From positions 48,524 through 112,523 of IMG/VR virus record IMGVR_UViG_3300009175_000009: a stretch of 64,000 nucleotides of DNA; one strand, given 5' to 3'. This DNA comes from a virus. Taxonomy: Duplodnaviria; Heunggongvirae; Uroviricota; Caudoviricetes. The position numbers were made by a program, and so were the translations under genes. Numbering within the stretch: the stretch's first letter is position 1; every line of letters begins with the position of its first letter. Below, piece after piece: positions 1 to 53,871 of this stretch. The notes below the pieces were generated by a model, which saw nothing but the letters and a program-made list of their open reading frames with translations, was not told where the DNA came from and searched no databases.

Positions 1-78
1 TACCTGCGACGCGTGGTCGGGGGTGACGAGAAGGTGATGGCCATAGCCCTTGCCTATATGGGCATTGAGGACGAGTAG
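1..78 (+). CDS. 3' end of an upstream gene, partial (…YLRRVVGGDEKVMAIALAYMGIEDE*)
   Basis: open frame running into the window start and ending at TAG 76-78. Confidence 0.3.
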   Translation, partial: YLRRVVGGDEKVMAIALAYMGIEDE

Positions 79-80
79 CC

Positions 81-278
81 GTGTATGTAGTGAAACGCAA
101 ACCGGGCGAAAGCATAGTGATCGACGACCGAATTACCGTTACGGTTTTAGAGTCGACCGATTGCCGCGTCAAGCTCGGAGTCGAGGCTGCCGGTGACGTA
201 TCGGTTCGCCGCGTGGAACCTGAAAATTTAACCGAAGCACCCGCCGATGCGGGAGCAACCAACCAAGGAGAAGTTTGA
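81..278 (+). CDS. csrA: carbon storage regulator CsrA homolog
   Basis: 65 aa; KPGESIVIDDRITVTVLE…VKLGVEA..DVSVRRVE matches the CsrA fold signature (VGE.i.Igd.I.itVl..g..vrlGi.AP..v.v.R.E). Confidence 0.7.
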   Translation: MYVVKRKPGESIVIDDRITVTVLESTDCRVKLGVEAAGDVSVRRVEPENLTEAPADAGATNQGEV

Positions 279-280
279 TC

Positions 281-928
281 ATGTCGATTGAAAGTGAACT
301 GCTGAAGGCCACAGGCCAAAAGGTGCGAGGGTCAAAGGAAGCGGAGCAGACGTACTTGACCCGCATTGCTCTGGAGTCCAACAACCTGGGCGACGACGAC
401 TGGAAGAAGCTGTCGGTCGAGGCTCAGGAGTGGATGAACGTCGCGTCCGAATCCTACGACAGCAAGCGTCCGATTCCGGGATTCGGCGGCAAGGCCGCAC
501 CCGCCGACGCCGCACCCGCCGACGCCGATCCTGCCGAGGCCGAAGCCGAGGGCGATGAGGTCGAAGGTGACGAGACCGACGCCGCCGAGGAGGCCGCAGC
601 CGAAGAAGCTCCCGCGCCCGCCAAGGCCAAGCCCGCCAAGGCTGATAAGTCAGCCGTCACCAAGGCCGAGAAACCGGCCAAGGCCGAGAAGCCGAAGAAG
701 GCCGAGAAGGCTCCCGCCGCGGACGGCGAGAAGCGTGGCGGATCCCGTCGCATGCGTGAGCTGATCTGCGAAGACCCGACCTTGGAGCAGCCCGCCCTGA
801 AGGCGAAGCTCGACGAGGAAGGTTACAAGATCAGCGATATCACCTTCAACGCGACGTACTACGACGTCAAGTCGACCATCCGCCTGCTCTCCGACCTGGG
901 CAAGCTCAAGGCCAAGGTCAGCGTCTGA
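281..928 (+). CDS. hypothetical protein with acidic linker and KAEKP/AKPAK histone-H1-like low-complexity repeats
   Basis: ATG 281 preceded by AAGGAGA; ORF track started at TTG 275; repeats PAKAKPAKADK…KAEKPAKAEKPKKAEK. Confidence 0.55.
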   Translation: MSIESELLKATGQKVRGSKEAEQTYLTRIALESNNLGDDDWKKLSVEAQEWMNVASESYDSKRPIPGFGGKAAPADAAPADADPAEAEAEGDEVEGDETDAAEEAAAEEAPAPAKAKPAKADKSAVTKAEKPAKAEKPKKAEKAPAADGEKRGGSRRMRELICEDPTLEQPALKAKLDEEGYKISDITFNATYYDVKSTIRLLSDLGKLKAKVSV

Positions 929-1017
929 CGAAACGTGTTTCTGGCCGGGAGGTGTCGCAGCCGAATATGCGGTGCCTCTCGGCCCGTTCGCGTTCCGCTA
1001 ATCGCAAGGAGACAATC

Positions 1018-2298
1018 ATGTCGAAGCGTATGTTTGATGCTACCCGTGCTGAAGTGTGGGTGGCGATAGACGTTCCCGACTCCGATGCGATGATCGAAGC
1101 CCTGCACGAATTGGACAGGGCCAATCGACCGTTCGGTGTCAAAGTCGGCCTGGAGGTGGTGACCGCACTGGGGCTGCCGCACGTGGTCAGCATCGTCCGC
1201 AACAGGCCGATGTTCATCGACCTGAAGTTCAAGGACATCCCCAATACCGTGGGAGGAGCATCTCGTGCCCTTCGGCGGTTTCATCCCACGATCTTCAACG
1301 TGCATGCCAGCGGTGGCGTTCGTATGATGAAGGCCGCCGTTGAGAATCGCGGTGAATCGGCGGTCTTCGCCGTCACTGTGCTGACCAGCCTGTCCGAACA
1401 AGAGGCTGGCATCAGCTACGGCGTGATATCTACGGGCTACGCAGTCGAAACGTTCGCCAAGCTGGCTGCCGAGGCCGGTGTGCAGGGGCTGATCTGTTCG
1501 GCAGCCGATCTGGCTGTGCAGGTAAGCCCCGACCTGCTGAAGCTGACGCCCGGCATTCGCCCGGATTGGGCTTCGGACAAGGGCGACCAGAAACGCGTCA
1601 CGACGCCCGCCGAGGCCGCTGTGGCGGGTGCTGACGGCATCGTGGTAGGCAGGCCGATACTTTCCCCGCCCAACGGCATCTTGCGGTGGCGAGCCCTACA
1701 GCGGGTTCACGACGAGTTCTGGTTGCTATCTGCACTGAAGGAACTGGGTGGGCTGCTGAACGGGCACTACGTCTACAAGTCTGGTCGGCACGGGCCGCAG
1801 TACTTTAACAAGGACGTGTTGCTCAACGATGCCGATGCTGTACGTCAGGTGGGCCAGATGATCGTCGACAGTCTTCCTGACGGCTACCGCTTCGATGTGG
1901 TGGTCGGCCCGGAGACGGGCGGTGCAAAGCTCGCTCGCGCGATTGGCGATATCATGGGTCAGCCGTGGGTTGGTGCGGAGAAGACGACCGATGGATTCTG
2001 GTTCCAGTCATGGAGCGATAAGTGGAAGGAGGTTCTCATCGTCGAGGATGTCCTGACCACGGGCGGCAGTCTGGACAAGGTAGTCGCCGAGGTGAATCGT
2101 CTGGTTCGTGGCAGTAGCGACGCAGGTGGGCTGGTACAGGTCAAGCGAGCCGTATTGAACCGCGGTGGCGTGGAGATGGTGAGCCTGGAGACCATAGCAT
2201 CCCTCGATGCTGTAAGTTATTCCGCCGAGGAGTGTCCGTTATGTAAGGCCGGCGCGCCTATCAGCACCGACGCCGGTCACGCAAAACCAAAGGTGTAG
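1018..2298 (+). CDS. bifunctional orotidine-5'-phosphate decarboxylase (N-terminal) / orotate phosphoribosyltransferase (C-terminal) fusion
   Basis: ODCase signature FIDLKFKDIPNTV; PRPP-binding OPRTase signature VLIVEDVLTTGGS plus VVGPETGG; RBS AAGGAGA before ATG 1018. Confidence 0.85.
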   Translation: MSKRMFDATRAEVWVAIDVPDSDAMIEALHELDRANRPFGVKVGLEVVTALGLPHVVSIVRNRPMFIDLKFKDIPNTVGGASRALRRFHPTIFNVHASGGVRMMKAAVENRGESAVFAVTVLTSLSEQEAGISYGVISTGYAVETFAKLAAEAGVQGLICSAADLAVQVSPDLLKLTPGIRPDWASDKGDQKRVTTPAEAAVAGADGIVVGRPILSPPNGILRWRALQRVHDEFWLLSALKELGGLLNGHYVYKSGRHGPQYFNKDVLLNDADAVRQVGQMIVDSLPDGYRFDVVVGPETGGAKLARAIGDIMGQPWVGAEKTTDGFWFQSWSDKWKEVLIVEDVLTTGGSLDKVVAEVNRLVRGSSDAGGLVQVKRAVLNRGGVEMVSLETIASLDAVSYSAEECPLCKAGAPISTDAGHAKPKV

Positions 2299-2413
2299 CT
2301 TCTCCGGACGGGCTGTGGGCAAACAGCAAGTCGCCGGTCAAAAGCTGGAGGTGCGGGGTGAAAGTCCCTGCTGGCCCGTTCTTTAGAATCAATAACAATC
2401 AAGGAGATAGATC

Positions 2414-3487
2414 ATGCGGTTAGTGGATGCAGTGGCTCGATTGAAGATGGTCGGCCTGGGGTTGAGCGGAGACGCCAACGATGACACGGGGCAGTTCGTG
2501 TTCCGAGATGGGCGGGTATCAACCCACAACGGCGTGTTCGGCCTATGGGCCAACATGGACATCGGCATCGAGACGGCCCTGCCGGGCGACAAGCTGACGT
2601 CCCTCCTGTCGAAGTGCAACGGCACCGATGTGGAGTTCACGAACGTCGGCGATTCCGTTCGCATCACCTGCGGACGCACCAACGTCACGATGCGGAAGCT
2701 GGAGATCACTTCCAAGGAGATGCCCGAACTCGCGGGCGTGACCGTCGACTGGCGACGGGCGTGGACCGAGGCACTGGAGCGAGCTTCGTGGTCGATGAGC
2801 GATGACCCACAGCGACCTGACCTCGCGGGCATCACCATGAGCGCGGTCGAGAACGCGATGGTCTTCTACAGCACAATTGGCATGGGTATCACCCGCAGCA
2901 TTGTGCCGGGAGCCAGCGACGACGTTCTGGTCGGCAGTGCCCTGATCATACCGTCCCGGTTCATGTGGGCGGTGCAGCGGGTGGTCGGCAGCCAACCATG
3001 CTCGGCGATTCAGTTTGCCGACGAGTATCTGCACGCCGTGTTCGGCGAAGGTGATAGTGCAGCACACCTGTACGGCAGCTTCCCGTCCGAGGCCAAGCCC
3101 GAACGATACGACGAGATCATCGCCGCCATTATCGATGGTCTGGAGTGGGTGGCCGTGCCCGCAGGGCTCGCACCGACTCTGGATCGCGTGGAGGCAGCCG
3201 GTGGCCGCGATACGATCACGGAGATCACCGTAGCCAACGGCAAGATGCGTCTGCATACCGACGAGGACTTTGGCACCGTCGACGACGAATTGGACTTCCC
3301 TGGTGAGGGCGGACCCATTAAGGTGAAAGCCGCTGTGTTGCGGAAGGCGGCGTCGGTGTCCAACGAGATAGCCATCAGCGCGAACTGCGTCGGCCTACGC
3401 AGCGGTGATGGTTTCATGTACGTTCAGGCCACCGTGACGGATGCCACGGCAACCCCAGCACCACAAGAGGAAGAAACGCAATCATGA
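2414..3487 (+). CDS. putative DNA polymerase sliding clamp (beta-clamp-like)
   Basis: 357 aa; overall size and weak C-terminal resemblance to DnaN domain III; located between pyr gene and polymerase; RBS AAGGAGA. Confidence 0.4.
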   Translation: MRLVDAVARLKMVGLGLSGDANDDTGQFVFRDGRVSTHNGVFGLWANMDIGIETALPGDKLTSLLSKCNGTDVEFTNVGDSVRITCGRTNVTMRKLEITSKEMPELAGVTVDWRRAWTEALERASWSMSDDPQRPDLAGITMSAVENAMVFYSTIGMGITRSIVPGASDDVLVGSALIIPSRFMWAVQRVVGSQPCSAIQFADEYLHAVFGEGDSAAHLYGSFPSEAKPERYDEIIAAIIDGLEWVAVPAGLAPTLDRVEAAGGRDTITEITVANGKMRLHTDEDFGTVDDELDFPGEGGPIKVKAAVLRKAASVSNEIAISANCVGLRSGDGFMYVQATVTDATATPAPQEEETQS

Positions 3488-3927
3488 TTCCCATTTTGGG
3501 CGAAGAGCGAACAGTGTATTCCGCCGACGAAGTGAAGGAGATGCTCAACCAGAGCCTTCAGCAGCAGGCGGAGCGGATCATGAACGACCAGTTCGTGAGC
3601 CTGTACTTTGCCTGCATTCAGTTAGGTTTCAGCGAACGCATCAAGGCCCACAGGTCTTGGTCGAACGACGTCGCGACCGGCCTGGCTGAGCAGGCCCACC
3701 AGACCGTGACGGCAGCGTTTGAACGCCTGGGCAAGAGCCAGCGTGAGAAACAGGCTATGCTGGAGAAGGCGATGGCCGAGGCCGACCGCCGCAAGCGAGC
3801 CAAAGACCCAACGTCCGTTGAGGCTACCGGCCAGACCGGACCGCAGGAAGCCGCGTGTGCGGCGGGCTGCGATTGCTCGCAAGAACAGCCGCCCGCCGCA
3901 GAGAAGCCCGCCGGCGAGGCAACGTGA
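3484..3927 (+). CDS. hypothetical protein
   Basis: ORF with ATGA overlap to the upstream gene. Confidence 0.45.
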   Translation: MIPILGEERTVYSADEVKEMLNQSLQQQAERIMNDQFVSLYFACIQLGFSERIKAHRSWSNDVATGLAEQAHQTVTAAFERLGKSQREKQAMLEKAMAEADRRKRAKDPTSVEATGQTGPQEAACAAGCDCSQEQPPAAEKPAGEAT

Positions 3928-3938
3928 CGCGTTCAGTG

Positions 3939-3958
3939 GCAAGCCTGCGGGCTTGCCG
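3939..3958 (+). terminator. GC hairpin GCAAGCC-tgcg-GGCTTGC (no U-tract) immediately before promoter-like motif
   Basis: perfect 7-bp stem / 4-nt loop directly after the stop of the 3484 gene. Confidence 0.3.
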
Positions 3959-3965
3959 TGTCTGG
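3958..3965 (+). promoter_or_regulatory. GTGTCTGG upstream motif (candidate phage promoter core) before DNA polymerase
   Basis: cGTGTCTGG + GGAGACTACAGGAGG; 26 nt before ATG. Confidence 0.45.
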
Positions 3966-3990
3966 TGGAGACTACAGGAGGAAAGTAACA

Positions 3991-6630
3991 ATGGGCGACG
4001 GTAAGTTTTTCACCAGAATAGACCTGAAGGCCCCGACAACGGGGAGGGTCAAGCCGCGGACGACTGGCCGCGACGAGGCGTACTATAACGAGAGGGGCTG
4101 CGACGCATGCCCGCTGGTCGATACCTGCGGTGGAATCGAGGATTCCCAGGTGAAGCCATCGGGAACGTCGCGGCCCCTCATCTACGTTCTGGGCGAAGCC
4201 CCAGGCAAAGATGAGGCTGAAGCGGGTGAACCGTTTGTTGGCAAGGCGGGCCAAGAGCTACGCCGCCATCTGCCCGATATCAGTATCTGTAGATTCAACA
4301 ACCCGGTGCGAGCACGGCCCGAGAACAACCGTGTGCCGACGATGTCCGAGGTGGAGTCATGCCGACAGCACCTCGTGGCTGATATCGAACGCACCAAGCC
4401 TGCGGCAATCCTTGCCTGCGGAGCAACTGCCCTGAGTTGGTTCATCGGCGGTGAGCCACGAATCACAACGTGGCGTGGGCGTCGCCTGCCCGTGCAGGTA
4501 GGGAGTCATCGGTGCTGGATGTATCCGGTGATGCATCCGTCCTTTATCATACGGCAGGGCGGTGACAAGGGTGGACCCGACCGCGAGGCTCGCCAGCATG
4601 CCGTCATGTTCAAGCACGATATCAAGCGGTGTTTCGCCGAGACCAAGAAGGGTATCGACCTGGGTGACCTGCCCTGGAACATCGATGCTCTGGAGGATGG
4701 CGTGGAACTGGCGACGCCCAAGCTCGGCGTCAAGTGGGTGGTGAAGATGCTAGAGGACGCCGCGAAGGCGAAGATCTGCGGCCTCGACCTGGAAACCAAC
4801 CGCGTGCGTCCCTACGCCAGCGGATCCCGAATTCTGAGCATGGCCATCAGCACGCCCAAGACGGCGTTTGCATTCCCGATAGGCCACAGTGATGCGTGGT
4901 GGTCGGCAGAGGACGAGATCGTACTGACGAGTGCCATCCGAGGATTCCTGCTAACCAAGATGATGAAGGTTGTCCACAACGCCAGCTTCGATATGGAGTG
5001 GCTGCTGCGGTTCTACGGCGTGCAAATCCTGAAGGATGATCTGTGGAATACGTGGGGTTGCACGCAGAACCAAGCGTACACCCTCGACGAACGCAAAGAG
5101 GACAGGATGCAAAGCCTCGATAGCCTGTGCCTGGAACGCTTGGGCACGCGGCTGAAGAAGTACAGCGACGTCGATGCCAAGCGTGGTGAGGTGGCCGAGA
5201 TCGGGAAGCTCCTGCGGTACAACGCCCTTGATGCTAAGTGCCATAGGCTTCTGTACGAAGAGCAGAACCGGGCACTGAAAGCGACGGGTATGCTGAACAC
5301 GTATCTCGATCATGTTCGTCGCGTACCGTTCCTCGTCTTGATGCAGCACAAGGGCGTTCCCGTCAGCCAGCCGGTGGTCGAGGAACTGCTGACAGACACT
5401 AACACCAAGATCAGGTTGGTAACGCAATCCGCCCTTGATACGCCCGAGGCTCATCAGTATCGCAATACATGGGGCACGCCGTTCATCATCAACGGTAAGG
5501 GCAGCCGCGAATGCCTGGAGAAGGTGTTCGGGCACATCGAAGCCCTGTACCGCAAGGACGCCAACGGCGAGGAAGTTTTCACGACCGATAGCAGCGTATT
5601 CAGCACTATTGATTCGCCACTGGCCCACAGTATCAGCGAGTTCCGCGAGTGGACGAAGATACGCGATACTTATCTTCTGCCCATGCGTGCCGGTGCGGGT
5701 AGCTTGGTTTACGAGGACGGCAATCTGCATGCCAACTTCAATGGGACGTTCACCGATACCGGGCGGCTGTCGTCTGACGGCCCGAATATGCAGAACTTTC
5801 CCAAGCGTGAACACGCCGAGGTGCGGAAGATGGTATCGGCCCCTGAAGGCTGGCTCATTGTATCCGCCGATATGAAGCAACTGGAAGTCTGCGTGGCGGC
5901 CCAAATGTCGGGCGACAAGCGGTTGCTGAAGGCTGTCCGCGAACGGGCCGACATTCACATGAAGTACGCGATCATGCTCAGCGAGGGCGTGCCGTTGTAT
6001 TTGGAACTGGTCGGTCACGGTGATATCAAGAAGGCACGCTCGGCGATCAAGAGCCTGATCACCTTCCCGTTTCTGTACGGTGCCATCCATACGACTGCCT
6101 CCCGCAACGTTCTGGCCAGCATGTCACAGTTCGACCGCGACAGGGCCGAAAGCGTCCGCAAGAAGGTGGAGAGAACCTGCGAGGACATCGAAAAGGAATT
6201 CTGGATTGAGTATCGTGATGTCAAGGCATGGCAGAACAAGCTGATGTCGGACTACGAGAAGAACGGCTATGTCACCTGCATGAACGGGCGTCGCCGCCGC
6301 GGGCCGCTGTCGATCAACCAGATCGCTAATACGCCTATTCAGGGCAGTGCCAGCGACCTTGTGGTGGACGCCGGCAATCGGCTGGCTCAGAAGGGCCTGC
6401 GGGACAATAACATGGCCCTGGTGATGAATATGAATATTCACGACGACCTGACGACCTTCGCCAAGAAGGAGGCCGCCGACGACGTGATGGCCGAAATGGT
6501 TGAAACCATGTTGCACCCCGGTTACGAGAACTGGGACATCAAGGCATGCCCGCTGGGCGTGGAGGTTTCTATCGGTTCCAACTGGTCGAATCAGAAGGCT
6601 ATCGGGACGTGGTATAGCGACGAAGCCTGA
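3991..6630 (+). CDS. family-A DNA polymerase with N-terminal family-4 uracil-DNA-glycosylase-like domain and 3'-5' exonuclease domain
   Basis: UDG4 motifs CDACPL, GEAPGKDE, PFVGKAG; exo motif DLETN; PolA motif A SADMKQLEV, motif B RSAIKSLITFPFLYG, motif C IHDDL; RBS GGAGGAAAG before ATG 3991. Confidence 0.9.
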   Translation: MGDGKFFTRIDLKAPTTGRVKPRTTGRDEAYYNERGCDACPLVDTCGGIEDSQVKPSGTSRPLIYVLGEAPGKDEAEAGEPFVGKAGQELRRHLPDISICRFNNPVRARPENNRVPTMSEVESCRQHLVADIERTKPAAILACGATALSWFIGGEPRITTWRGRRLPVQVGSHRCWMYPVMHPSFIIRQGGDKGGPDREARQHAVMFKHDIKRCFAETKKGIDLGDLPWNIDALEDGVELATPKLGVKWVVKMLEDAAKAKICGLDLETNRVRPYASGSRILSMAISTPKTAFAFPIGHSDAWWSAEDEIVLTSAIRGFLLTKMMKVVHNASFDMEWLLRFYGVQILKDDLWNTWGCTQNQAYTLDERKEDRMQSLDSLCLERLGTRLKKYSDVDAKRGEVAEIGKLLRYNALDAKCHRLLYEEQNRALKATGMLNTYLDHVRRVPFLVLMQHKGVPVSQPVVEELLTDTNTKIRLVTQSALDTPEAHQYRNTWGTPFIINGKGSRECLEKVFGHIEALYRKDANGEEVFTTDSSVFSTIDSPLAHSISEFREWTKIRDTYLLPMRAGAGSLVYEDGNLHANFNGTFTDTGRLSSDGPNMQNFPKREHAEVRKMVSAPEGWLIVSADMKQLEVCVAAQMSGDKRLLKAVRERADIHMKYAIMLSEGVPLYLELVGHGDIKKARSAIKSLITFPFLYGAIHTTASRNVLASMSQFDRDRAESVRKKVERTCEDIEKEFWIEYRDVKAWQNKLMSDYEKNGYVTCMNGRRRRGPLSINQIANTPIQGSASDLVVDAGNRLAQKGLRDNNMALVMNMNIHDDLTTFAKKEAADDVMAEMVETMLHPGYENWDIKACPLGVEVSIGSNWSNQKAIGTWYSDEA

Positions 6631-8929: not shown

Positions 8930-9369
8930 TCAACAGCCTTACTGCTATCGAATGGACTCGCGTGCGGGCGTTCTGCCGGGACAAACGCCCGGATGAGATT
9001 ACACCAAACGCCTTGTACCGGGCGGCACGTGGTTTGAAGGCTGGTAGCCGGAACACGAACATGGTGACCGATAGCATCATGCTGGACGCTGTGCGTATGT
9101 GGTGCGTGAAGCCCGAACCTCCCAAGGAGAAACCTGTGCCGAAGCACTTATACATTACCGTGACTGGCCCCGCGATGTCGGGGAAGTCGACTGTCGTTGA
9201 GGTGATCGCTCAGGCTCTGGCTCGTGCTGGGTTGAAGTGCGATGTGAATTACGGGGATGACGGTCAGCCAACATCACCGTTGTCCCGACGCATTGATGCC
9301 ATGAAGATTGCCGCACCGAATATCACTATTAACCAACGGCAGACCCAGCGTGAGCCTTCCAAAGATTAA
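8926..9369 (+). CDS. small P-loop NTPase-like protein
   Basis: ITVTGPAMSGKSTVV Walker-A-like; ATGA overlap with clamp loader stop. Confidence 0.45.
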   Translation: MINSLTAIEWTRVRAFCRDKRPDEITPNALYRAARGLKAGSRNTNMVTDSIMLDAVRMWCVKPEPPKEKPVPKHLYITVTGPAMSGKSTVVEVIAQALARAGLKCDVNYGDDGQPTSPLSRRIDAMKIAAPNITINQRQTQREPSKD

Positions 9370-10207
9370 GACCGTCGTGCCTTGGTTCGGATCCGCGAGA
9401 ACGGTTGCCGAACGCATCGGTGAGCATCTGACCGGCTTCAAGTGGGTGGGTATACCGTTCTGCGGCGGATTGTCGGAGGTGCTGTACATCCAGGCCCGAT
9501 CCATCGTCTGCAATGATATGCACCGGCACATGATCAACCTCGCCCAGGTGCTGAAGGACGCGACGCTGGGACCGGCCATGATCGAAAGTCTGCGGGACGA
9601 ACTGTTCCATCCGGAGACGCTGGCACACGCTCAGGCTACCTCGGCTGACACGGACAATGATCAGTTGATTCCTATGGGTGCCCGCGCGCTGAACTACGAG
9701 GCTGCGAGGCAGTACTTCATCGCCTGTTGGATGGGCCGCAGTGGGAATGCTGGCGGCGACAGGGAGTTCACGGGCAACCTGTCGGTGCGGTGGAACGCGA
9801 ACGGTGGTGATTCTAATACGCGGTATCGCTCCGCCGTCGAGAGCCTGGCTGCGTGGCGGAAGGTCATCCAGCGATGTAACTTCACGTGTATGGACTGCTT
9901 CGAGTTTCTAGAGACCTGCGAGGATGATCCCGAGCACGCCATCTACTGCGACCCGCCGTGGCCCGAAGATGGTGATGTGTATAGGCACAAGTTCACGCGA
10001 GAACATCATACGCGGCTGGCCCAAATCCTGACGCGGTTCCAGAACGCACGCGTGGTGGTACGAATCAACACGTGTTCATTAGTGGATGAGTTGTACCCTC
10101 GTGGGTTGTGGAATTGGAATCAGCAAACGAGTCGCACGCAGGGCAACAATGATAAGGTAGAGGTGATTTTGGTTTATCGACCCCGAAGAAAAATTCAACG
10201 TGTCTAG
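9350..10207 (+). CDS. dam: DNA N6-adenine methyltransferase (Dam / D12 class)
   Basis: PWFGSAR…FCGGLS (motif I region) and YCDPPW (DPPY motif IV); start uncertain (TTG 9308 or GTG 9350). Confidence 0.7.
   Translation: MSLPKIKTVVPWFGSARTVAERIGEHLTGFKWVGIPFCGGLSEVLYIQARSIVCNDMHRHMINLAQVLKDATLGPAMIESLRDELFHPETLAHAQATSADTDNDQLIPMGARALNYEAARQYFIACWMGRSGNAGGDREFTGNLSVRWNANGGDSNTRYRSAVESLAAWRKVIQRCNFTCMDCFEFLETCEDDPEHAIYCDPPWPEDGDVYRHKFTREHHTRLAQILTRFQNARVVVRINTCSLVDELYPRGLWNWNQQTSRTQGNNDKVEVILVYRPRRKIQRV
10200..10207 (+). promoter_or_regulatory. GTGTCTAG + TGTAGGCAGAGGAG motif
   Basis: 22 nt upstream of ATG 10229. Confidence 0.45.
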
Positions 10208-13169: not shown

Positions 13170-14347
13170 TTCGACGACGTCTCGTAACGGCAACGCCCCC
13201 ACCTCCGCAGCGTGAGGAAGAGGACGAAGACGTCGAGTCAACCGAAGATGAAACACCGGCCCGCGGGTCACGTGCAGCCCCACGTCGCACGGCTAAGGCT
13301 ACTCGCCGCAAGACCGCCCGCGATACCGATGACGAGCCGTTGGTACGCGACGGTGGGGCCTACGGGCTCACGGGCGACATGGAGGATATCCGTGTTAAAC
13401 GATTCGGTTCGGGCTGTACCCTTCTGGACTGCGAGATTGGTGGTGGTGGTGGCGGAGCGTTCCCTGAAGGCCGCGTGGTGAACTTCGCTGGCTGGCAGTC
13501 AACGAACAAGACAGGCGTATGCATCGAGGCGTGTGCCAACTTTTCCATCGCCTATCCGACCGGCATCACGCGATATAACGACGCCGAGGCCGCGTTCGAT
13601 GTGAATTATGCCCGCCGCATGGGACTGCCGATGGACAGAATCAGCTTCGTCGAGGAGTGCCGTATCGTCGAGGTGTTCTTTCAGGACGTGAAGGACTTCA
13701 TTGCCGAGTGTGAACGCCGTCGCGTGCCAGGCTTGTATATCATCGATAGCCTTGATGCCCTGAGCGATCAGGCCGAACTGGATGGCGGTATGGACAAGGC
13801 CAGTTACGGTATGGCGAAGGCCAAACGCATGTCACAGTTCTTCCGCACCCTGGCCGGCCCTTTGAACTCCGCCAAGGTGACCCTGATAGTCATCTCGCAG
13901 CTACGCGACAAGCTGAATGTATCGTTCGGCGAGAAGGCGACGCGTGCCGGCGGCAAAGCCCTGGACTTCTACGCTTCGTGGGTGGTGTGGCTGTCGCATA
14001 TTGGCCAGATCAAACGCTCGGTCAACGGCATCGAACGCGTGGTCGGTGTTCGCATCAAGGCCAAGTGCAAGAAGAACAAGTGTGGCCCGCCGTTCCGCGA
14101 GTGCGAGTTCCCCGTGATCTTTGACTACGGCATCGATGACATCGAATCGATGGCAGACTGGTTAGTTGAGGTGAAGAAGTGGGAACTGTTCGATGAACGA
14201 AAACCTGGAACGTACCTGAAGTGGCTGGACAAACAGCCGCGTGAAATGTACATTAGCGAATCCAAGCGTATGTCCGCAGTGGTGCGGGCCGAGTGGGACA
14301 AGATCGAGGAGTCATTCTCGCCGAACTTCTCGAAGTACGGTAGCTAA
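13154..14347 (+). CDS. RecA/UvsX/RadA-family recombinase with degenerate Walker A
   Basis: RecA-core layout: GWQSTNKTGV (Walker-A-like), YIIDSLDAL (Walker B), loop regions GGKALDFYAS; N-terminus MAKKIVRRRLVT Arg tag. Confidence 0.7.
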   Translation: MAKKIVRRRLVTATPPPPQREEEDEDVESTEDETPARGSRAAPRRTAKATRRKTARDTDDEPLVRDGGAYGLTGDMEDIRVKRFGSGCTLLDCEIGGGGGGAFPEGRVVNFAGWQSTNKTGVCIEACANFSIAYPTGITRYNDAEAAFDVNYARRMGLPMDRISFVEECRIVEVFFQDVKDFIAECERRRVPGLYIIDSLDALSDQAELDGGMDKASYGMAKAKRMSQFFRTLAGPLNSAKVTLIVISQLRDKLNVSFGEKATRAGGKALDFYASWVVWLSHIGQIKRSVNGIERVVGVRIKAKCKKNKCGPPFRECEFPVIFDYGIDDIESMADWLVEVKKWELFDERKPGTYLKWLDKQPREMYISESKRMSAVVRAEWDKIEESFSPNFSKYGS

Positions 14348-14375
14348 GGCGAATTTCACCATTAGGAGGAAGAAG

Positions 14376-14948
14376 ATGATGAAGTCAGTTTTGTTCTTTG
14401 TGGTCGTATGCATTGCGGGCATTGCCAATGCCGCGACCGATGCTCTCGATGAAGTGAACGCAATTCGTGCCCAGCACGGTATGCCTGCATTCCAGCGGGA
14501 CGCAGCGATGACGCAGGGTGCGATGGCCTGCGCCGACTATCGTGCCAGTTACGGCATGCATCACCACACCGGGAACGACTTCGCGTTCCTGCCCAGGGGA
14601 TCATGGGCCGACTTCGGCGGCTGCGACGGCGGAGCTATCAGCAGTGGCTGGCTGGCGTGCAATACAACCGGCAACTTTACCTACGCCGGGGCCGCAGCGT
14701 CATACAACAACGGGGTCAAGTTCTGCCAGTTATTCGTGGGCAATCGACCCAACGGCCCTGTGGCAAACGCTGTGCGGGCTATCACGCATCCCCTGCAAAC
14801 AGCCGAGGCCCGACGCGAAGTCGGCCAGACGCCCCCAGCCGTCGCCCCTGAAACGACACCGCAGGGTGATCAGTACGGATCGTCACGGGGCGGGCGCGAA
14901 CGCCAGGGCCTATTTGCTCGCTGGGCGGCACGACGCGGACGTCGCTAG
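14376..14948 (+). CDS. secreted Cys-rich protein, possible CAP/SCP (YkwD-like) domain
   Basis: signal peptide MMKSVLFFVVVCIAGIANA; AGGAGG RBS; NAIRAQHGMP…GMHHHTG weak CAP-like pattern. Confidence 0.4.
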   Translation: MMKSVLFFVVVCIAGIANAATDALDEVNAIRAQHGMPAFQRDAAMTQGAMACADYRASYGMHHHTGNDFAFLPRGSWADFGGCDGGAISSGWLACNTTGNFTYAGAAASYNNGVKFCQLFVGNRPNGPVANAVRAITHPLQTAEARREVGQTPPAVAPETTPQGDQYGSSRGGRERQGLFARWAARRGRR

Positions 14949-15579: not shown

Positions 15580-16140
15580 ATGGCTCAAGGCTGCCGCTGT
15601 CTGCCGGGATGTAGAACCCGGAGTAACTACGTTTGCACGCGGCGGTTCGTGGCTACATCGACGACCGGCGACGAGGTGGCCAGTAAGTATTCCGAGGTGA
15701 AGTGCCTTGCCTGCGGCGGCAAATGGCGAACCGACGCAGTCTACGTCGAGAAGCTGCGAAACTACCGCGAGCGCAAATACCGCAGGATGACCGATGATCA
15801 AATACTACAACTGATCGAGGAAGGTCATCTCAAGGTCAATCCGATAACCGGCGTGGTTCGTAAGCACCGCAAGGTTTGTCACGAGTGGACGAAGCAGTGG
15901 GTCATCCTCAAGCAGGATTTAGACCGTAATGGTTACCCCAGCGTCCGCATCTACTGGAACGGTCACCGCAAGGGTGCTATGGTTCACAGATTAGTTTACA
16001 TGGCCGTTCGCCGAAAACTAATACCGGATGGTTACGATGTAGATCATCGAGATAAGAATAGGGCGAACTGTTCTTATAGGAATCTTAGGCTGCGAACCAT
16101 AGCCGCGAACCGTGGTAGGGTGGACGATGTCCCATTTTGA
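15580..16140 (+). CDS. HNH homing endonuclease
   Basis: HNH motif GYDVDHRDKNRANCSYRNLRL; N-terminal Cys cluster. Confidence 0.8.
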   Translation: MAQGCRCLPGCRTRSNYVCTRRFVATSTTGDEVASKYSEVKCLACGGKWRTDAVYVEKLRNYRERKYRRMTDDQILQLIEEGHLKVNPITGVVRKHRKVCHEWTKQWVILKQDLDRNGYPSVRIYWNGHRKGAMVHRLVYMAVRRKLIPDGYDVDHRDKNRANCSYRNLRLRTIAANRGRVDDVPF

Positions 16141-16144
16141 ACGT

Positions 16145-16618
16145 CTATTCAAGCTGTCGTGTATAGCCCTTGATGATGTTACGAATCGTTGTGGGGTTGA
16201 CGTTAAATCGTATTCCGAGTCGGTAGTACCCAAATTCACCAGTCGCGTAAAGGAGACGAGCTTCAATAACCTGGGGTGTAGTCATCTTAGCGTTATAGTG
16301 GGTGGCTCCGTGCATGTGCCGTCTTTTGGAAACACAGTCGTCTTCGTTATCTTGCTGTGTTCCGAGGAACAGGTGTGTAGGCTCGACGCACGGTGGGTTA
16401 TCACAGTGGTGACAGACATACATACCATCCGGTATTGGGCCGTAAGCGAGTTCATAAGCGACGCGGTGGGCGTACAGTGGCTTCGAGTTCGTGCCACCGG
16501 ATCCTATCATTCCATAGCCACTTCTGGTTCCGCCCATCCAGATCAAACATCCTCCGATTCTTCGGCGTTTGGGCACAGTGTGGAATCTAACATCAAGTGG
16601 TATGGCGTGGCGGGACAT
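16145..16618 (-). CDS. HNH endonuclease (HNH_3 type)
   Basis: CLIWMGG…YVCHHCDNPPCVEPTHLFLGTQQDN; GGAGATAA RBS on minus strand. Confidence 0.8.
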   Translation of the reverse strand: MSRHAIPLDVRFHTVPKRRRIGGCLIWMGGTRSGYGMIGSGGTNSKPLYAHRVAYELAYGPIPDGMYVCHHCDNPPCVEPTHLFLGTQQDNEDDCVSKRRHMHGATHYNAKMTTPQVIEARLLYATGEFGYYRLGIRFNVNPTTIRNIIKGYTRQLE

Positions 16619-16640
16619 AGTTATCTCCTTTGCTTTATTG

Positions 16641-16657
16641 TAGCAAAGCTATTGCTA
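16641..16657. promoter_or_regulatory. palindrome TAGCAAagctaTTGCTA in divergent intergenic region
   Basis: perfect 6-bp arms between divergently oriented genes. Confidence 0.3.
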
Positions 16658-16689
16658 ATACGCAAGAGTTGTTACGGAAAGACGATATC

Positions 16690-17388
16690 ATGAGGCTGAA
16701 TCGACACCAACTCCCGAAGCCGAGATCAGTTGAACGTCAACGTATGATGTTTGATACGCAAGAGATGACGCACGGTATGTGTCGCGTGATGGTGGGCGAT
16801 TTCATGGAGGAAGCAACCGCATGCCTCACCAGCAGCGTGCGACTCCGGACGGACTGCCGCTGCGAGATTTGTCCAGACATCCAGTATTCCCGCCGGCTGT
16901 TCTTCGAGAGCAAGTCGGTCGGCAACACTGACCAGGCGATCATCTATCAGAGCCGCCTGCGCAAGGACGCCGACTTCTGCCTCCGCGGCTACCAGTTATG
17001 CTACTGGTTCTGGCATCACCACTGCCAGGTCTCGAAGGCTGAGAGTAAGACCGAGCTATATCATGAAATTGCCAGGCTAATGCAAGACGTGATTGTGGTT
17101 CCGCTGCGAATGATCTGGAAGGCTTACGGACATCGCGGGCCGAAGCTGCTGAACAACGCACTGTCCCGCAACGGCAAGACCATCGGATGGGGCAGTTTTG
17201 GATATGGTTATGGGTGGAATATCCCACTCCAACAATGGCGTGCGATGGGTGGTACGCGAGTGATCGTACCAAAGCTGAAGGTCTATGATGTTGAGTTTAC
17301 GAATCTTAGGATACAACTGCTTCCAGACGTGCCGAGCGACGTGGTGATGTCGGTCATTCTAAGCGGCGGGTGTAGCCTTTGGCGTTGA
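16690..17388 (+). CDS. hypothetical protein
   Basis: ATG 16690; track start was TTG 16630. Confidence 0.45.
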   Translation: MRLNRHQLPKPRSVERQRMMFDTQEMTHGMCRVMVGDFMEEATACLTSSVRLRTDCRCEICPDIQYSRRLFFESKSVGNTDQAIIYQSRLRKDADFCLRGYQLCYWFWHHHCQVSKAESKTELYHEIARLMQDVIVVPLRMIWKAYGHRGPKLLNNALSRNGKTIGWGSFGYGYGWNIPLQQWRAMGGTRVIVPKLKVYDVEFTNLRIQLLPDVPSDVVMSVILSGGCSLWR

Positions 17389-17838
17389 ATGTTTAGTCTG
17401 TTTGTTCCGAAGAATGATCTTATCCTTGATAGTTTTCAGAGCATGGCAGTTTGGGCACATGAGTTGGTAGAGTTCGGGGTTTTTATAGGCCCTGACCGTG
17501 TTATCACCAGTTCTATGACGTCCGCCGCCGATAGCAACAATATGATCTGCTTGTAATATTTCAGGATGTTTGTTGTACCCACATTTGCAGCAACATCCGC
17601 CGAGCATTTGTAGTACAGCAACCCGTACCTGACGTCGCCACTCGTTTTTCCTTTTTGTGCAGCACGTTTTACATCTATACGAACGGTTGCGTAGTCCCGA
17701 AAATTCGGTGGTCGGTTGAGGAACGCCGCAGAGGTTACACGTGATATCCATAGCAGACACTATACCACGTATCTGCAACGCGTACAACGCCACCGTGTCT
17801 GGACTGGTTGTGTATGACGTACCGTTCCCCGACTTCAA
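17359..17838 (-). CDS. HNH endonuclease
   Basis: Cys4 pairs plus LQADHIVAIGGG…DNTVRAYKNPELYQLMCPNCHALK. Confidence 0.75.
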   Translation of the reverse strand: MKSGNGTSYTTSPDTVALYALQIRGIVSAMDITCNLCGVPQPTTEFSGLRNRSYRCKTCCTKRKNEWRRQVRVAVLQMLGGCCCKCGYNKHPEILQADHIVAIGGGRHRTGDNTVRAYKNPELYQLMCPNCHALKTIKDKIILRNKQTKHSTPKATPAA

Positions 17839-18059
17839 GGTGCGTCTGGCCCGCGAAGTGCCGGGTGATTTAGCAACAACCCTGTGGATGCGATGATGAA
17901 ATGGTTTAGTTTAAGTTGGTGGCTATACCTGTTCGACGGCTGCACGGGTTGGACGAATTTCTGGTGCCGCGTGCGAAATCATCCAGGCGGCGTGGTGTGG
18001 TATAACGTGAACGCCCTGGAGCCTGACATGCGCTGTAATAACTGTGGAGAAGACTTAGG

Positions 18060-18599
18060 ATGATTACCTTACCGAAACCCGGCGATACGGTTCACGTGAT
18101 CGTGGACGGTGAATACATCATGCCCTTCTACGTGTGGGGCGTATCGCAGCAGACCTATGTCGGTGCCGGCAACGAGACGCCGCACGTGCCCGCCGACCGG
18201 CAGGTCGCCTTGTGCCGTAACGAGCGCATCGGCTACAAGCTGATCGAGGTGCCGAAGCTGTCTCTGGAGACCGTAGCAACCAGGAACAGCAAACTGCCGA
18301 AGAAACGGCGGTGCGAGATGTGCAAACGACAGCGGAAGCGGTTAGGAACACATCACATCGATGGCGACAAAGAGAACAACGATCCGTCTAACCGAATGAC
18401 GCTATGCCCGCGATGTCATACTAAGTGGCACTGGCAGCACGGGAAACGAGGAAAGCGGAAAACTAGTGTAGTATGTTTTTGTGGTGATCAGTCCTTTGAA
18501 TTAGGAATGTGTCGGAAGCACTACCAGCGGTTCAAGCGGCACGGTGACCCGATGCTGGTGAAGATACGAAACGGTGGTTTAGTGCGAGCAGATTCGTAA
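18060..18599 (+). CDS. HNH endonuclease
   Basis: GTHHIDGDKENNDPSNRMTLCPRCHTKWH; RBS GGAGAAG. Confidence 0.7.
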   Translation: MITLPKPGDTVHVIVDGEYIMPFYVWGVSQQTYVGAGNETPHVPADRQVALCRNERIGYKLIEVPKLSLETVATRNSKLPKKRRCEMCKRQRKRLGTHHIDGDKENNDPSNRMTLCPRCHTKWHWQHGKRGKRKTSVVCFCGDQSFELGMCRKHYQRFKRHGDPMLVKIRNGGLVRADS

Positions 18600-28412: not shown

Positions 28413-29627
28413 ATGGAACGCCGAAATATCGAAACCGTACCTACACGACGCCGCATCATCTCGTCCGTGGAGGTTCCCGTCGCGGAAGAACCGACATCCG
28501 ACCAGCGTACCCTCGTCCGTCGCTCGATTGCGACCCCTGCTCGCAGGCATATTGGTGATAGCGGGAACGTGGACGAGAAGCTACTTGTTGCCCCCTATCC
28601 GTACTTCGGCGGAAAAAGCGGTGTCGCTAATGAGATATGGAGTCGCCTGGATCCCAAGACCCTCGACTGCTATATCGAGCCGTGCATGGGATCCGCAGCA
28701 ACGTACCTCGTGCGACCACAGCCGTGGGTGGGCCGTGAAGTCCTCAACGACTACGATGCCCTCCTGGTGAACGCGTGGAGGGCCATCAGCCGTCATCCCG
28801 ACGAGGTGGCTGAGATCTGCAACGGTATCATGCTGGCCGAGATGGAACTGCACGCCATCCACTCGCACCTCACGCGATCCAGGGATCGCATGCGGAAGCT
28901 CGTGGGCGGCAGTACCGACTTCTGTGACGTGAAGCTCGGCGCGTGGTGGCTGTGGGGCATCTGCATGAAGCTGGGCGGTGGGTTCTGTAGCGGCGACGGC
29001 CCGTGGTACGTCATCAACGACGAGCTTGTGTGCCTGGAGAAGGACGACCCGCGACGGGACGGCAACGGCATCACCTGTAGCGTGCCCTGCGTGGGGAACC
29101 GGGGCGTGCTGCGGCAGGAGCTTGACTACCTCAAGTCGTGGATGCGAGCCCTGTCGTACCGCATGCGACAGACATTAGTCCTCAGCGGTGACTGGTCGCG
29201 GGCCGTGACGCCCGCGTTCACGGGAACGGGCAAAATAGGCATCATGTTCGACCCGCCCTACGGTGCTGATGCCAACTTCAACGGCACCCTATACACAAAT
29301 CAGGATGCCGACATCAGCACCAAGATCAAGGAGTGGTGCATCCAGCATACCGACCCCGCGTGGTGCCGAGCGAACAAAGACACGAATATCTACCGCATCG
29401 CGTACTGCGGCTATACACCGGAAGGTGATATCCTTGAGCAGAACGGATGGGCAGTTCACGCGTGGACAGCCGCAGGAGGCTACGGAAACCAGGGTCAGGA
29501 TGGGGCTAACAAGAAGGTAGAGAAGGGCGGGCAGTTTCTTCGCGGGAACGCGGGCCGCGAGCGTGTTTGGTTCAGCCCGGCCTGTGGTAGTGGCAGTGAT
29601 ATTTGGCTTAGATTCGGAAAGAAGTAA
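28413..29627 (+). CDS. DNA N6-adenine methyltransferase (second Dam-like, D12 class)
   Basis: PYPYFGGKS (motif I region) and FDPPYGAD (motif IV). Confidence 0.7.
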   Translation: MERRNIETVPTRRRIISSVEVPVAEEPTSDQRTLVRRSIATPARRHIGDSGNVDEKLLVAPYPYFGGKSGVANEIWSRLDPKTLDCYIEPCMGSAATYLVRPQPWVGREVLNDYDALLVNAWRAISRHPDEVAEICNGIMLAEMELHAIHSHLTRSRDRMRKLVGGSTDFCDVKLGAWWLWGICMKLGGGFCSGDGPWYVINDELVCLEKDDPRRDGNGITCSVPCVGNRGVLRQELDYLKSWMRALSYRMRQTLVLSGDWSRAVTPAFTGTGKIGIMFDPPYGADANFNGTLYTNQDADISTKIKEWCIQHTDPAWCRANKDTNIYRIAYCGYTPEGDILEQNGWAVHAWTAAGGYGNQGQDGANKKVEKGGQFLRGNAGRERVWFSPACGSGSDIWLRFGKK

Positions 29628-31937: not shown

Positions 31938-32423
31938 ATGAAGTTTGCGAGTCTCGTACTTTTGTTGATCGTTGCCGGATGCTCGTTCGAGACATCCGTA
32001 ACGTCGACACCCAACGCCAAACAGTCTGCTGATCCTGTCCTGGTTTCCGTTCCGGTCAAACCCGATCCAGTCTCGGCCATGAAGGATATTCTGGCTCGCG
32101 TGGCACGCGGCACGCCGCGTGGTGCGACTGCTCATGACTTGCATTATGATGTCAAGAAGACGGATTCGATGATAACGCCGTACACGGCGACGGTTACGTT
32201 CCGCGACGAGTACTCTATACCGTCATCCGAATGGAAAGACGATGCTCGTGCGGCAAGCCTTAAATCACCAATTACAGTTCAGTTGGCGTGGCAGGATGAA
32301 CACTGGGTGGTCAAGGAGCTGTATGTGAATGCCCTCGGGCTAAAAAGCCAGCAAGTTTATGTAGCTAACGTATCGTCAGGCAGTTCATTGCACGACTGGA
32401 TTATTGTGTTTTCCGGTATGTAG
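31938..32423 (+). CDS. lipoprotein
   Basis: MKFASLVLLLIVAGC lipobox; RBS AAAGG. Confidence 0.5.
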   Translation: MKFASLVLLLIVAGCSFETSVTSTPNAKQSADPVLVSVPVKPDPVSAMKDILARVARGTPRGATAHDLHYDVKKTDSMITPYTATVTFRDEYSIPSSEWKDDARAASLKSPITVQLAWQDEHWVVKELYVNALGLKSQQVYVANVSSGSSLHDWIIVFSGM

Positions 32424-32426
32424 TTC

Positions 32427-32434
32427 GTGTCTGG
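32427..32434 (+). promoter_or_regulatory. GTGTCTGG motif with 150-nt leader
   Basis: leader contains hairpin GGCCTTCGGGCC. Confidence 0.35.
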
Positions 32435-32583
32435 TGATGCATGGTGCGGGCGGCGTTACGACGCAGGGATGGTTGGGATCGCTACGCACGGCATCCCTTA
32501 GAATGGCGTGGCCTTCGGGCCTAGTGACTCTCTGTGATTCGGAGGCGTCGCTCGCCCGTTCCGCCCTTATCAAGGAGACCGAT

Positions 32584-33273
32584 ATGAACCGTGAAAAACC
32601 AACCGAGACCCGATTTGGCCTGACGCACAAGGCCACCATCCTCGCCATGTCCGATGACGGCACGTCGCCCGATCCGGTCGAATTCTTCATCATCTCGAAC
32701 ACCTTTCCTGACGGCAGGCTGTGCGAGATCTTCCTGACGACGCGGAAGGAGGGCAGCACCATCGACGGCCTGCTCGACGGCATCGCCACCCTGACCAGCT
32801 TCTGCCTGCAAAGCGGGTGGCCGCTGTACAAGCTCGTGGAGAAGTTCAGCCACACGAAGTTTGAGCCTATGGGTTACACCAAGGGCGAGACGTGCGTGCG
32901 GTATGCCAAGAGCATCCTCGACTACGTCTTCCGCTACCTGGGCGAGACGTTCGGTGATATGCCCGCCGAGATGGAGCATAGCCACAGCAGCGGCGACGAT
33001 CAGACCGAACTGCCGGCAACCGACCCGGATACCGAGGCGGTTGTGGAGATCGCCCCCGACCTGGATGAAGAGGCGAAGAAGGAGGAGGCCCGCCTGGAAC
33101 TGATCGAGGCCCACAAGCGTATTACACAGGCCCGCGACGACGAGGATCGCAAGAATCAGGAGGCTGCTGTTGCATGGCACGCCGCCCATCCCAAGACGTA
33201 TCCCGAATACCCTGAGAACCGACCCATGCCGCTGGGCGAAGCTGTCGTTCCCGGCGACGAACCCCGTGGATGA
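32584..33273 (+). CDS. hypothetical protein with acidic C-terminal half
   Basis: ATG 32584 with AAGGAGA RBS; 150-nt leader after GTGTCTGG at 32427. Confidence 0.5.
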   Translation: MNREKPTETRFGLTHKATILAMSDDGTSPDPVEFFIISNTFPDGRLCEIFLTTRKEGSTIDGLLDGIATLTSFCLQSGWPLYKLVEKFSHTKFEPMGYTKGETCVRYAKSILDYVFRYLGETFGDMPAEMEHSHSSGDDQTELPATDPDTEAVVEIAPDLDEEAKKEEARLELIEAHKRITQARDDEDRKNQEAAVAWHAAHPKTYPEYPENRPMPLGEAVVPGDEPRG

Positions 33274-37040: not shown

Positions 37041-37598
37041 ATGCCGAGTCACTATATAATATGCCCGCAACGGAACGGTGACATAACCGAAGCCCGTATG
37101 CTAGTGCAGAACTACGGTTTGGTGGTTGGTGAATACGACGTATTCATGCCAACAGCCAATTATGTAGGTGACTGCGTGTATCTGAGCGTGTTGCCATCGA
37201 GTGAAGCCTACCAGAAGATGCGGGAGTGGATCGACCGCCGGCGGCACACGAACAGGCCAGAGTCGGCAATCGCCGCAGCCTGCCCGTCGAACCAGCGTGC
37301 CTGGGTGCTGTACTATCCGCCCGGCAGATCTTATCAGGGTGGCAGGGAAGTCGAAAACTGTGAATTATCGGTTCAAATACTACAGGCCCTGGAAAGCTGC
37401 GACCGCTGGCCGGTGGGTGTAGCCCTTCCTGCCTCCGAGCCTGGTGAAATAGGATGGCGGCTGGAGAGCGTAGGTCCGCCTGTGATTCCGCAGTGGATCG
37501 AAACCAACGGTGGCCAGTTATGGACGCCAGCGATGGAAGACGCACCCAGGCCGGTGCGGCGACGTATTCAAACATTACCCGATAGTGGTGAAATCTAA
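37041..37598 (+). CDS. hypothetical protein; paralog of the 40015 gene; C-terminal …VRRRIQTLPDSGEI tag
   Basis: shared blocks GLVVGEYDV / WVLYYPPG…SVQILQAL with the 40015 product. Confidence 0.5.
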   Translation: MPSHYIICPQRNGDITEARMLVQNYGLVVGEYDVFMPTANYVGDCVYLSVLPSSEAYQKMREWIDRRRHTNRPESAIAAACPSNQRAWVLYYPPGRSYQGGREVENCELSVQILQALESCDRWPVGVALPASEPGEIGWRLESVGPPVIPQWIETNGGQLWTPAMEDAPRPVRRRIQTLPDSGEI

Positions 37599-37611
37599 GG
37601 AGAAATTAAGC

Positions 37612-53608: not shown

Positions 53609-53871
53609 TGGAGAACGTTCCAAAACTATCGAAAGACGCTCGAATTCGCAAAACTCGGTATCAAAAGATCGAGGCATATCGTGTTATGCGTCAGGGTCAG
53701 ATCGGCAGGCGGATGTACAGATCACAAGCCATCGATGAACTGCTGGATTCCGCACTAGCGAATATTTCAGTTATTACGGAGACCGCTAGTGCGGACATAC
53801 TTGCACGTATTGATCGTTTGGAACGTGCTGTGTTTCCCGGTGATTTTACGAAAAGGAGTGATGGACAATGA
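53608..53871 (+). CDS. hypothetical protein
   Basis: ORF. Confidence 0.4.
   Translation: MENVPKLSKDARIRKTRYQKIEAYRVMRQGQIGRRMYRSQAIDELLDSALANISVITETASADILARIDRLERAVFPGDFTKRSDGQ

Follow-up and report, generated by a model that had tools for sequence, protein, structure and literature searches.

The reading frame at positions 1018-2298 (+ strand) of the window, by which we mean the whole 64,000-nucleotide stretch of DNA analysed here, is a fused OMP decarboxylase (ODCase) and orotate phosphoribosyltransferase (OPRT)-like gene, and the reading that we favour, with a probability of roughly three in four, is that it encodes a bifunctional bacterial-type UMP synthase which serves its phage as an auxiliary metabolic gene (AMG), supplying UMP during the replication of a large phage genome. 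The frame opens with an ATG at 1018 and closes with the stop codon at 2296-2298, giving 426 amino acids, and a ribosome-binding site, AAGGAG (1006-1011, +), can be read directly 6 nt 5' of the ATG. A first-pass annotation of this DNA had described a single 426-residue ORF with an ODCase signature and a PRPP-binding signature. That observation is confirmed: IDLKFKDIPNTV occupies residues 67-78 and VLIVEDVLTTGGS residues 339-351 of one uninterrupted frame, in which the domain search proposed at the time detects both PF00215 and PF00156. The annotation had named two outcomes that would count against it, failure to detect both domains and a frameshift splitting the frame. The second is ruled out by the recurrence of the identical gene call, with a 100% identical protein, on about ten contigs from independent ENA, Logan and JGI samples, and by at least nine diverged metagenomic relatives (44-76% identity) that keep a single ORF; with both domains in one unbroken ORF, neither outcome therefore arises. 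Because the identical protein is found on contigs from independent samples, the ORF is not an assembly artefact, and the three loci compared for the fused gene differ at no nucleotide.

The N-terminal half, residues 1-232 (1018-1713, +), is assigned as an OMP decarboxylase (PyrF) domain from PF00215, TIGR01740 and superposition on the structure 1dbt. The Pfam model PF00215 (OMPdecase) covers residues 13-217 with E=1.1e-38 and 133.8 bits against a cut-off of 27, and the NCBIfam pyrF model TIGR01740 reaches 132.8 bits, above its cut-off of 92.3, while the stricter full-length equivalog NF001273 is missed slightly (176.1 against a cut-off of 193). The catalytic motif D68-L-K70-F-K-D73 (DxKxxD; 1219-1236, +) is conserved and aligns with E. 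coli/Klebsiella FLDLKFHDIPNT. Across an alignment of 17 fused relatives K42, K70, D73, Q191, G211 and R212 are invariant, with D18 and D68 conserved in at least 90%; following the established ODCase literature, we take D18, K42 and D68-x-K70-x-x-D73 to be the catalytic Asp/Lys set, and Q191 and G211-R212 to be the phosphate gripper. The best sequence matches among solved structures are bacterial ODCases (E ~1e-30), OPRTs coming next, and this half of the AlphaFold2 model superposes on the B. subtilis ODCase 1dbt with a TM(target) of 0.86, an rmsd of 1.9 A and 35% identity, as well as on 8cso and 1eix. Sequence and model together make the ODCase half convincing as a predicted OMP to UMP decarboxylase. 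A score above cut-off with the pyrF-specific model and an intact DxKxxD set speak against other functions of the ODCase superfamily (HUMPS, KGPDC), which were rejected.

The C-terminal half, residues 233-426 (1714-2295, +), is by its sequence a type-I phosphoribosyltransferase (PRT) whose nearest family is OPRTase, and it was annotated as an OPRT-like domain of Thermus type (PyrE) from TIGR01367 and from the match of a phage-clade profile to 4paw. The general model PF00156 (Pribosyltran) covers residues 275-358 with E=3.7e-7 and 30 bits, just over its cut-off of 26.3. The Thermus-type model pyrE_Therm (TIGR01367) spans residues 238-416 at about 78-79.7 bits (E=2e-22 to 7e-22), below its cut-off of 150.25, and TIGR00336 (PyrE), at 50 bits against 106.8, is not passed either. 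Control proteins score 215.7 (Sporomusa PyrE) and 200.3 (Dialister PyrE) with TIGR01367, compared with 124.5 for the PyrE of a Pseudobdellovibrionaceae MAG (L019), 105.4 for P0129, 105.1 for the fused CPR protein P0011 and 88.6-107.1 for the other members of the phage clade. Since P0011, whose gene adjoins pyrD, itself reaches only 105 bits, scores below this threshold are normal on the branch. The phage-clade profile finds the H. pylori OPRT 4paw at E=3.3e-26 over almost its full length, followed by the OPRTs 2yzk (1.1e-17) and human 2wns (9e-14); the best non-OPRT is 7f06 (2.7e-13), and PyrR chains are matched at ~4e-7.

Residue conservation was read from a PRT alignment of nine phage-clade members, eight other fused proteins and 118 standalone relatives. 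The hood motif (H250, S255, G256, H258 and Y262) is conserved in the phage clade and in the 118 standalone proteins, N264, K265 and D266 are retained, and P298, G301 and G302 of the PPi loop are conserved across the alignment. The PRPP-binding motif (residues 339-351; 2032-2070, +) keeps E343, D344, T347, T348, G349, G350 and S351 in all groups, and N381-R382 is likewise conserved, R382 aligning with R156 of E. coli in an alignment with the E. coli and S. typhimurium OPRTs. Close to the C-terminus C406-P-L-C409 (2233-2244, +), typical of Thermus-type PyrE, aligns with the CPLC of 4paw; C406, C409, H250 and H258 are invariant in 135 sequences.

Two positions of the active site are peculiar to the phage clade. 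In the PPi-loop region GPETGGAK (residues 297-304; 1906-1929, +) residue 304 is a lysine in 9/9 phage-clade proteins as against I/V/L in most standalone relatives. The flexible-loop region, residues 322-338 (KTTDGFWFQSWSDKWKE; 1981-2031, +), is remodelled and has no arginine at 331, the position after the flexible-loop hairpin, and the loop around it is variable within the clade; Arg331 is present in 112 of the 118 standalone proteins (95%) and all eight non-phage fusions, and in none of the nine phage-clade proteins. Lys304 is confined to proteins that lack Arg331 (10/10), and the co-occurrence probably reflects one evolutionary event. Lys304 may compensate for the lost loop arginine. E299 and K254 are further gains of the clade. 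As the PRT half scores below the PyrE cut-offs and has lost the loop arginine, OPRT activity (orotate + PRPP to OMP) is rated only as probable. We think it unlikely, if still worth stating, that the fusion was accompanied by a rewiring of the OPRT active site in which the loop arginine was dropped and a lysine placed on the helix after the PPi loop. Were the swap mechanistic, loop closure might have become unneeded, OMP being passed straight to the rigidly attached ODCase, or PRPP handling or regulation might have been altered; if true, the phage enzyme would be a natural case of domain-fusion-driven active-site remodelling.

The same changes raise the question whether only the ODCase half works, the PRT half being a dead or weak OPRT whose role would be to scaffold a dimer or, as a regulatory module, to bind PRPP/orotate. 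The loss of Arg331 and the variable loop in all nine clade members would fit this, as would the sub-threshold scores with both curated PyrE models and the existence of PRT-fold regulators, of which PyrR is within reach of the clade profile. Selection points the other way. In comparison with the closest relative, the ODCase half has a dN/dS of 0.24 and the PRT half one of 0.12, indicating purifying selection on both and the stronger on the latter, which is also the more conserved in identity (83% versus 71%); these low ratios and the greater conservation argue against decay of the PRT half. All PRPP-motif and hood residues, R382 included, are kept, OPRTs outscore PyrR by some 19 orders of magnitude, the pyrD-adjoining P0011 is sub-threshold as well, and an ODCase with no source of OMP would be of little gain to a phage. 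We therefore consider a protein with a single working half decidedly improbable, and PyrR-like regulation by the PRT half, judged from sequence comparison, ranks low.

A still less probable reading keeps both halves active but shifts the base specificity of the PRT half, perhaps in favour of a 5-substituted orotate or some other pyrimidine, yielding a non-canonical nucleotide for modified phage DNA. It draws on the clade-specific changes (R331 lost; K304, E299 and K254 gained), on the several DNA methyltransferases encoded in the window and the genes for Amidoligase_2 and GATase_6 a few kb upstream of the fusion, and on the fact that in the relative L012 the fusion adjoins a B12-binding radical SAM gene. 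By analogy with E. coli OPRT, however, the changes in the PPi and flexible-loop regions would lie on the pyrophosphate side and not the base side, where Y262-F263, T347-T348 and R382 are unaltered. The window proteins scanned include no thymidylate-synthase-like protein and no hydroxymethylase, and the attached canonical ODCase implies a 6-carboxy-pyrimidine nucleotide as the intermediate. Compared with the rewiring described above, a changed substrate feeding a modified pyrimidine is the more remote suggestion. A role of the PRT in NAD+ reconstitution or another anti-defence function was also considered and is out, the domain being an OPRT-like PRT of type I in fusion with an ODCase.

The fused gene sits in the replication module of a phage-like genome. 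Its neighbours encode a CsrA-like protein, a sliding clamp, a UDG-3'-5' exonuclease-PolA polymerase, a clamp loader, a gp32-like SSB, a UvsX/RecA-like recombinase, SbcCD-like proteins, a FEN nuclease, Dam-type methyltransferases and several HNH endonucleases, and the flanking genes match PHROG families at 1e-18 to 1e-95. The closest polymerases from isolated phages, those of the Vibrio phage MAR10 group, are about 29% identical and likewise adjoin a beta-clamp gene. Every long ORF of the window is on the + strand, no tRNAs were found in it, and there were no matches to Rfam families in the whole window, nor at E<=1 around the fused gene; neither a sigma-70-like promoter nor an intrinsic terminator was detected in positions 1-4000. 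Among about 50 window proteins scanned there are no other pyrimidine-pathway genes, which counts against the reading that we favour.

The source genome is complete, circular, about 192 kb long and phage-like. On the 192,532-bp MEGAHIT contig ERZ27245846 k141_83342 the fusion gene is at position 155,443, and a gene lying 60.4 kb further along in the window falls near position 23,481. The remaining offset of 141 nt matches the k-mer of the assembler, and the contig is therefore a closed circle of about 192.4 kb. PHROG scans of the large downstream proteins were empty, capsid, portal and terminase genes were not found, and a 1250-aa protein had no tblastn match in phages. With no virion or packaging genes found, the case for a phage is built on the replisome set and on genome organisation. 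An artefactual fusion, created in assembly or sequencing, or a cellular and not viral gene is scarcely credible. It is true that all data are metagenomic, that no gene for capsid, portal or terminase came to light and that many fused-looking matches in bacterial genomes are two adjacent genes. Against this stand the identical ORF on about ten contigs from independent samples, a fusion kept in nine diverged relatives, a contig that closes on itself through a 141-nt k-mer overlap at ~192.4 kb, a set of T4-like replisome genes that match PHROGs strongly, a single coding strand with homing endonucleases and with no tRNA or Rfam match, and closest isolate polymerases that are phage polymerases adjoining a beta-clamp gene.

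Related fusions are few. Among 5.8 billion proteins they form nine clusters at 90% identity, and a 50%-identity library holds three full-length phage-clade proteins plus fragments, with about 20 fused representatives overall. Members of the phage clade are found in phage-like contexts. Some are syntenic with the window gene, in the order CsrA, an unknown gene, sometimes an HNH gene, the fusion, clamp and PolA; the non-syntenic members adjoin DnaB/RecA/UDG, a sigma-factor-like gene or a radical-SAM gene. INPHARED (50,697 phage records), a pattern scan of IMG/VR and the tailed-phage entries of BFVD yielded no fused copy, which bears out the first-pass view that a phage AMG of this architecture is uncommon. 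No PHROGs family exists for the fused protein, and megablast of the first 20 kb against the 50,697 phage records returned no match. The tblastn matches to both halves in 'phage' records, which are unannotated Staphylococcus, Enterococcus and Listeria entries, come in two pieces at <=33% identity, consistent with neighbouring host-type pyrF and pyrE genes. All 21 apparent fusions in a scan of GTDB genomes (e.g. Sporomusa, Dialister) proved at ORF level to be adjacent gene pairs, and the same check resolved the IMG/VR candidates spanning both halves (L105, L111, L127, L106) into adjacent genes.

With ODCase residues 13-217 preceding PRT residues 238-416, the window protein does not have the domain order of the animal and plant enzymes. 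The first-pass annotation had set this order against that of eukaryotic UMP synthase in general. The contrast holds for plants and metazoa, in which OPRT is followed by ODC (PMC2705460), but not for kinetoplastids, oomycetes and diatoms. The reversed, ODC-OPRT order, described in PMC2705460 and PMC7052976, is already known from these three groups and from cyanobacteria, and is seen here in CPR bacteria and giant viruses too. The top Foldseek match is the Leishmania donovani UMP synthase 3QW4, a kinetoplastid OMPDC-OPRT that combines the two activities predicted for the window protein in the same N-to-C order and aligns with it over 442 columns covering both domains. It is a eukaryotic glycosomal enzyme, however, of other ODCase and OPRT subtypes, and compared with our predicted monomer it shows 17-18% identity, a TM of 0.40 and a whole-chain rmsd of 15-17 A; this identity and TM point, therefore, to an independent fusion, probably with a different domain packing. 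Cyanobacteria are cited for an ODCase-OPRT fusion (PMC2705460), and the curated prokaryotic family NF004034 (PRK05500), the cyanobacterial-type bifunctional ODCase/OPRTase, also has its ODCase N-terminal and its OPRT C-terminal. The full window protein has no match to that model (cut-off 656 bits) at E<=1, and differs from the family in its ODCase subtype and its Thermus-type PyrE.

Fused PyrF-PyrE proteins of CPR/Patescibacteria (P0011, P0015, P0021) share with the window protein the domain order, the Thermus-type PRT and the CPLC tail, at 34-38% identity over about 97% of the length. They differ in being cellular (the gene for P0011, from a Paceibacterota MAG, adjoins pyrD in a cellular ribosomal-protein operon), in having 4-40 extra junction residues and inserts in the PRT half, and in keeping the loop arginine and lacking Lys304; in neither NJ tree are they sister to the phage clade. 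Unfused pairs with the same gene order and PyrE subtype, making two polypeptides, occur both in bacteria (Sporomusa, Dialister, Elusimicrobia, the Pseudobdellovibrionaceae MAG and others) and on phage-like or viral contigs (L140, L111, L127). The UMP synthases of giant viruses (Marseillevirus LCMAC103 A0A481YUM7, Fadolivirus) are likewise virus-encoded and fused, but come from NCLDV that infect eukaryotes; A0A481YUM7 is co-linear with the window protein over 419 columns at 21% identity and a TM of 0.53. The pyrE AMGs of cyanophages and viromes, where phage OPRT has been read as an aid to nucleotide supply (PMC5083919, PMC4022391), are single-domain and have no ODCase, as is a standalone PyrE from an uncultured tailed phage in BFVD.

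In bacteria a Thermus-type pyrE very often comes immediately after pyrF; the intervals run from -4 to +24 nt, and several pairs have a 4-nt stop/start overlap. On one phage-like contig (L140) an unfused pyrF-pyrE pair with a 1-nt gap is about 45% identical to the window protein in both halves, as close to it as the fused clade members are among themselves. There pyrF ends in ...EEFYSAKGD-stop, a single nucleotide follows and pyrE begins with GTG. The end of pyrF also contains the pyrE ribosome-binding site, AAAGGAG. Precisely nine residues of this junction, FYSAKGDVG, are missing from the fused proteins. In the AlphaFold2 model of the 426-residue protein (pLDDT 94.4, pTM 0.92) the corresponding region, residues 223-242 (1684-1743, +) and nine residues shorter than in L140, is one continuous predicted helix with no linker, its helical blocks having pLDDT values of 95-98. 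The two parental enzymes are each dimeric. An unfused sibling and exactly nine missing junction residues thus trace the route of the fusion, and L140, on sequence comparison, is the apparent pre-fusion state. The ancestral phage lineage would already have carried adjacent pyrF and pyrE genes, and a deletion of ~27 nt would then have taken the pyrF stop codon, the tail encoding the ribosome-binding site and the start codon of pyrE, so that the final helix of PyrF became joined to PyrE's first.

The phylogeny adds some detail to this route. PRT halves of the nine fusions are monophyletic in the NJ tree (95/100 bootstraps), with P0136 and P0158 as sisters, and in the ODCase NJ tree the PyrF of L140 (P0020) is nested within the phage clade (84/100). 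The L140 PyrE has Arg331, the ancestral state, and no Lys304; P0136, a second unfused pair with a 4-nt overlap, is already in the derived state. Among possible donors the best cellular pair, that of the Pseudobdellovibrionaceae MAG, is only 48% (ODC) and 37% (PRT) identical.

Taken as a bifunctional UMP synthase, the fused gene would be transcribed within the replication gene block, its C-terminal domain converting orotate and PRPP to OMP and its N-terminal domain decarboxylating OMP to UMP. One protein would in this way perform the last two steps of UMP synthesis, and these last two de novo pyrimidine steps would be supplied during replication of the ~192-kb genome, free of the regulation of the host's own pyrE and pyrF. 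A boost to the pyrimidine supply of the phage, as first proposed for this gene, is plausible, and phage pyrE genes provide a precedent as AMGs (PMC5083919, PMC4022391).

The compact, linker-free and confidently modelled 426-residue protein may be of use to enzymologists or metabolic engineers as a minimal UMP synthase. The birth of a bifunctional enzyme is unusually clear here, since touching or overlapping pyrF-pyrE pairs, an unfused phage-like sibling and the fused clade can all be set side by side. Views of pyrimidine metabolism and of phage biology are unaltered, as nucleotide AMGs are expected at such a phage size. ODC-OPRT fusions have evolved repeatedly, and the phage case is rare yet unsurprising in principle; it would add the last two steps of de novo UMP synthesis, on one polypeptide, to the nucleotide-supply genes of large tailed phages.

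The C-terminal half of the fused PyrF-PyrE protein (window 1018-2298, +), a phosphoribosyltransferase (PRT) of the Thermus type, carries four residues, His250, His258, Cys406 and Cys409, that are invariant in 135 of 135 aligned Thermus-type PRT sequences, comprising nine from the phage clade, eight other fused proteins and 118 standalone relatives. The two histidines correspond to the codons at window 1765-1767 and 1789-1791 and the two cysteines to those at 2233-2235 and 2242-2244. As judged from this conservation, the four residues could form a candidate His2Cys2 metal site or represent some other subfamily-specific feature.

The second gene upstream of the fusion (81-278, +) encodes a 65-aa CsrA-like regulator (PF02599, E=4e-14; phrog_9500), and its position is kept in related phage contigs. 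Further upstream, 5-8 kb from the fusion and before the window start, the same genome carries genes for an Amidoligase_2 protein and a class-II glutamine amidotransferase (GATase_6), separated by two small ORFs (contig locus L005, 2120-4708), an arrangement also kept in a related contig. The DNA polymerase gene at 3958-6630 (+) is a three-part fusion of a UDG-superfamily domain, a 3'-5' exonuclease and a family A polymerase; a related contig encodes an orthologue of 1779 aa with a faint precomputed match to Intein_splicing. For P0010, a distant fused PyrF-PyrE relative, the gene directly downstream encodes a B12-binding radical SAM enzyme (locus L012, 2287-3930).

The source genome, of about 192.4 kb, appears to be circular and complete, since the window spans the two ends of the MEGAHIT contig ERZ27245846 k141_83342 (192,532 bp), wrapping round, and positions across these ends are offset by 141 nt, the length of the k-mer overlap. 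Just past the window end this genome encodes a 1250-aa protein (locus L138, 13706-17458) with zero matches in Pfam, in PHROG or by tblastn against phages, and the large ORFs that follow it are without a Pfam match; the gene may be the start of a structural module that cannot be recognised as such.

Within the window the G+C content falls to 0.51 at 16001-18000, against approximately 0.58 elsewhere. This dip overlaps a region (15580-18599) containing two HNH endonuclease genes (15580-16140 and 18060-18599, both +) and an ORF without any match (16630-17388, +), and the coincidence suggests that homing elements have been inserted here. Several DNA methyltransferase genes are also present (9308-10207, 28413-29627 and 53868-54842, all +), two of them D12-class and Dam-like and one matching phrog_15480. 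Unusual cargo includes genes for a CAP-domain protein (14241-14948, +), a TSCPD-domain protein (32404-33273, +), an NAD-dependent epimerase/dehydratase (37510-38622, +) and an SPFH/Band-7 protein (41913-43340, +; phrog_200, 'lipoprotein'). Neighbouring genes that together occupy 60906-62148 (+) are assigned by precomputed Pfam matches to an AdoMet decarboxylase (60906-61469, +; PF02675) and a spermidine synthase (61447-62148, +; PF01564), and on these assignments the phage encodes a predicted polyamine-synthesis pair.
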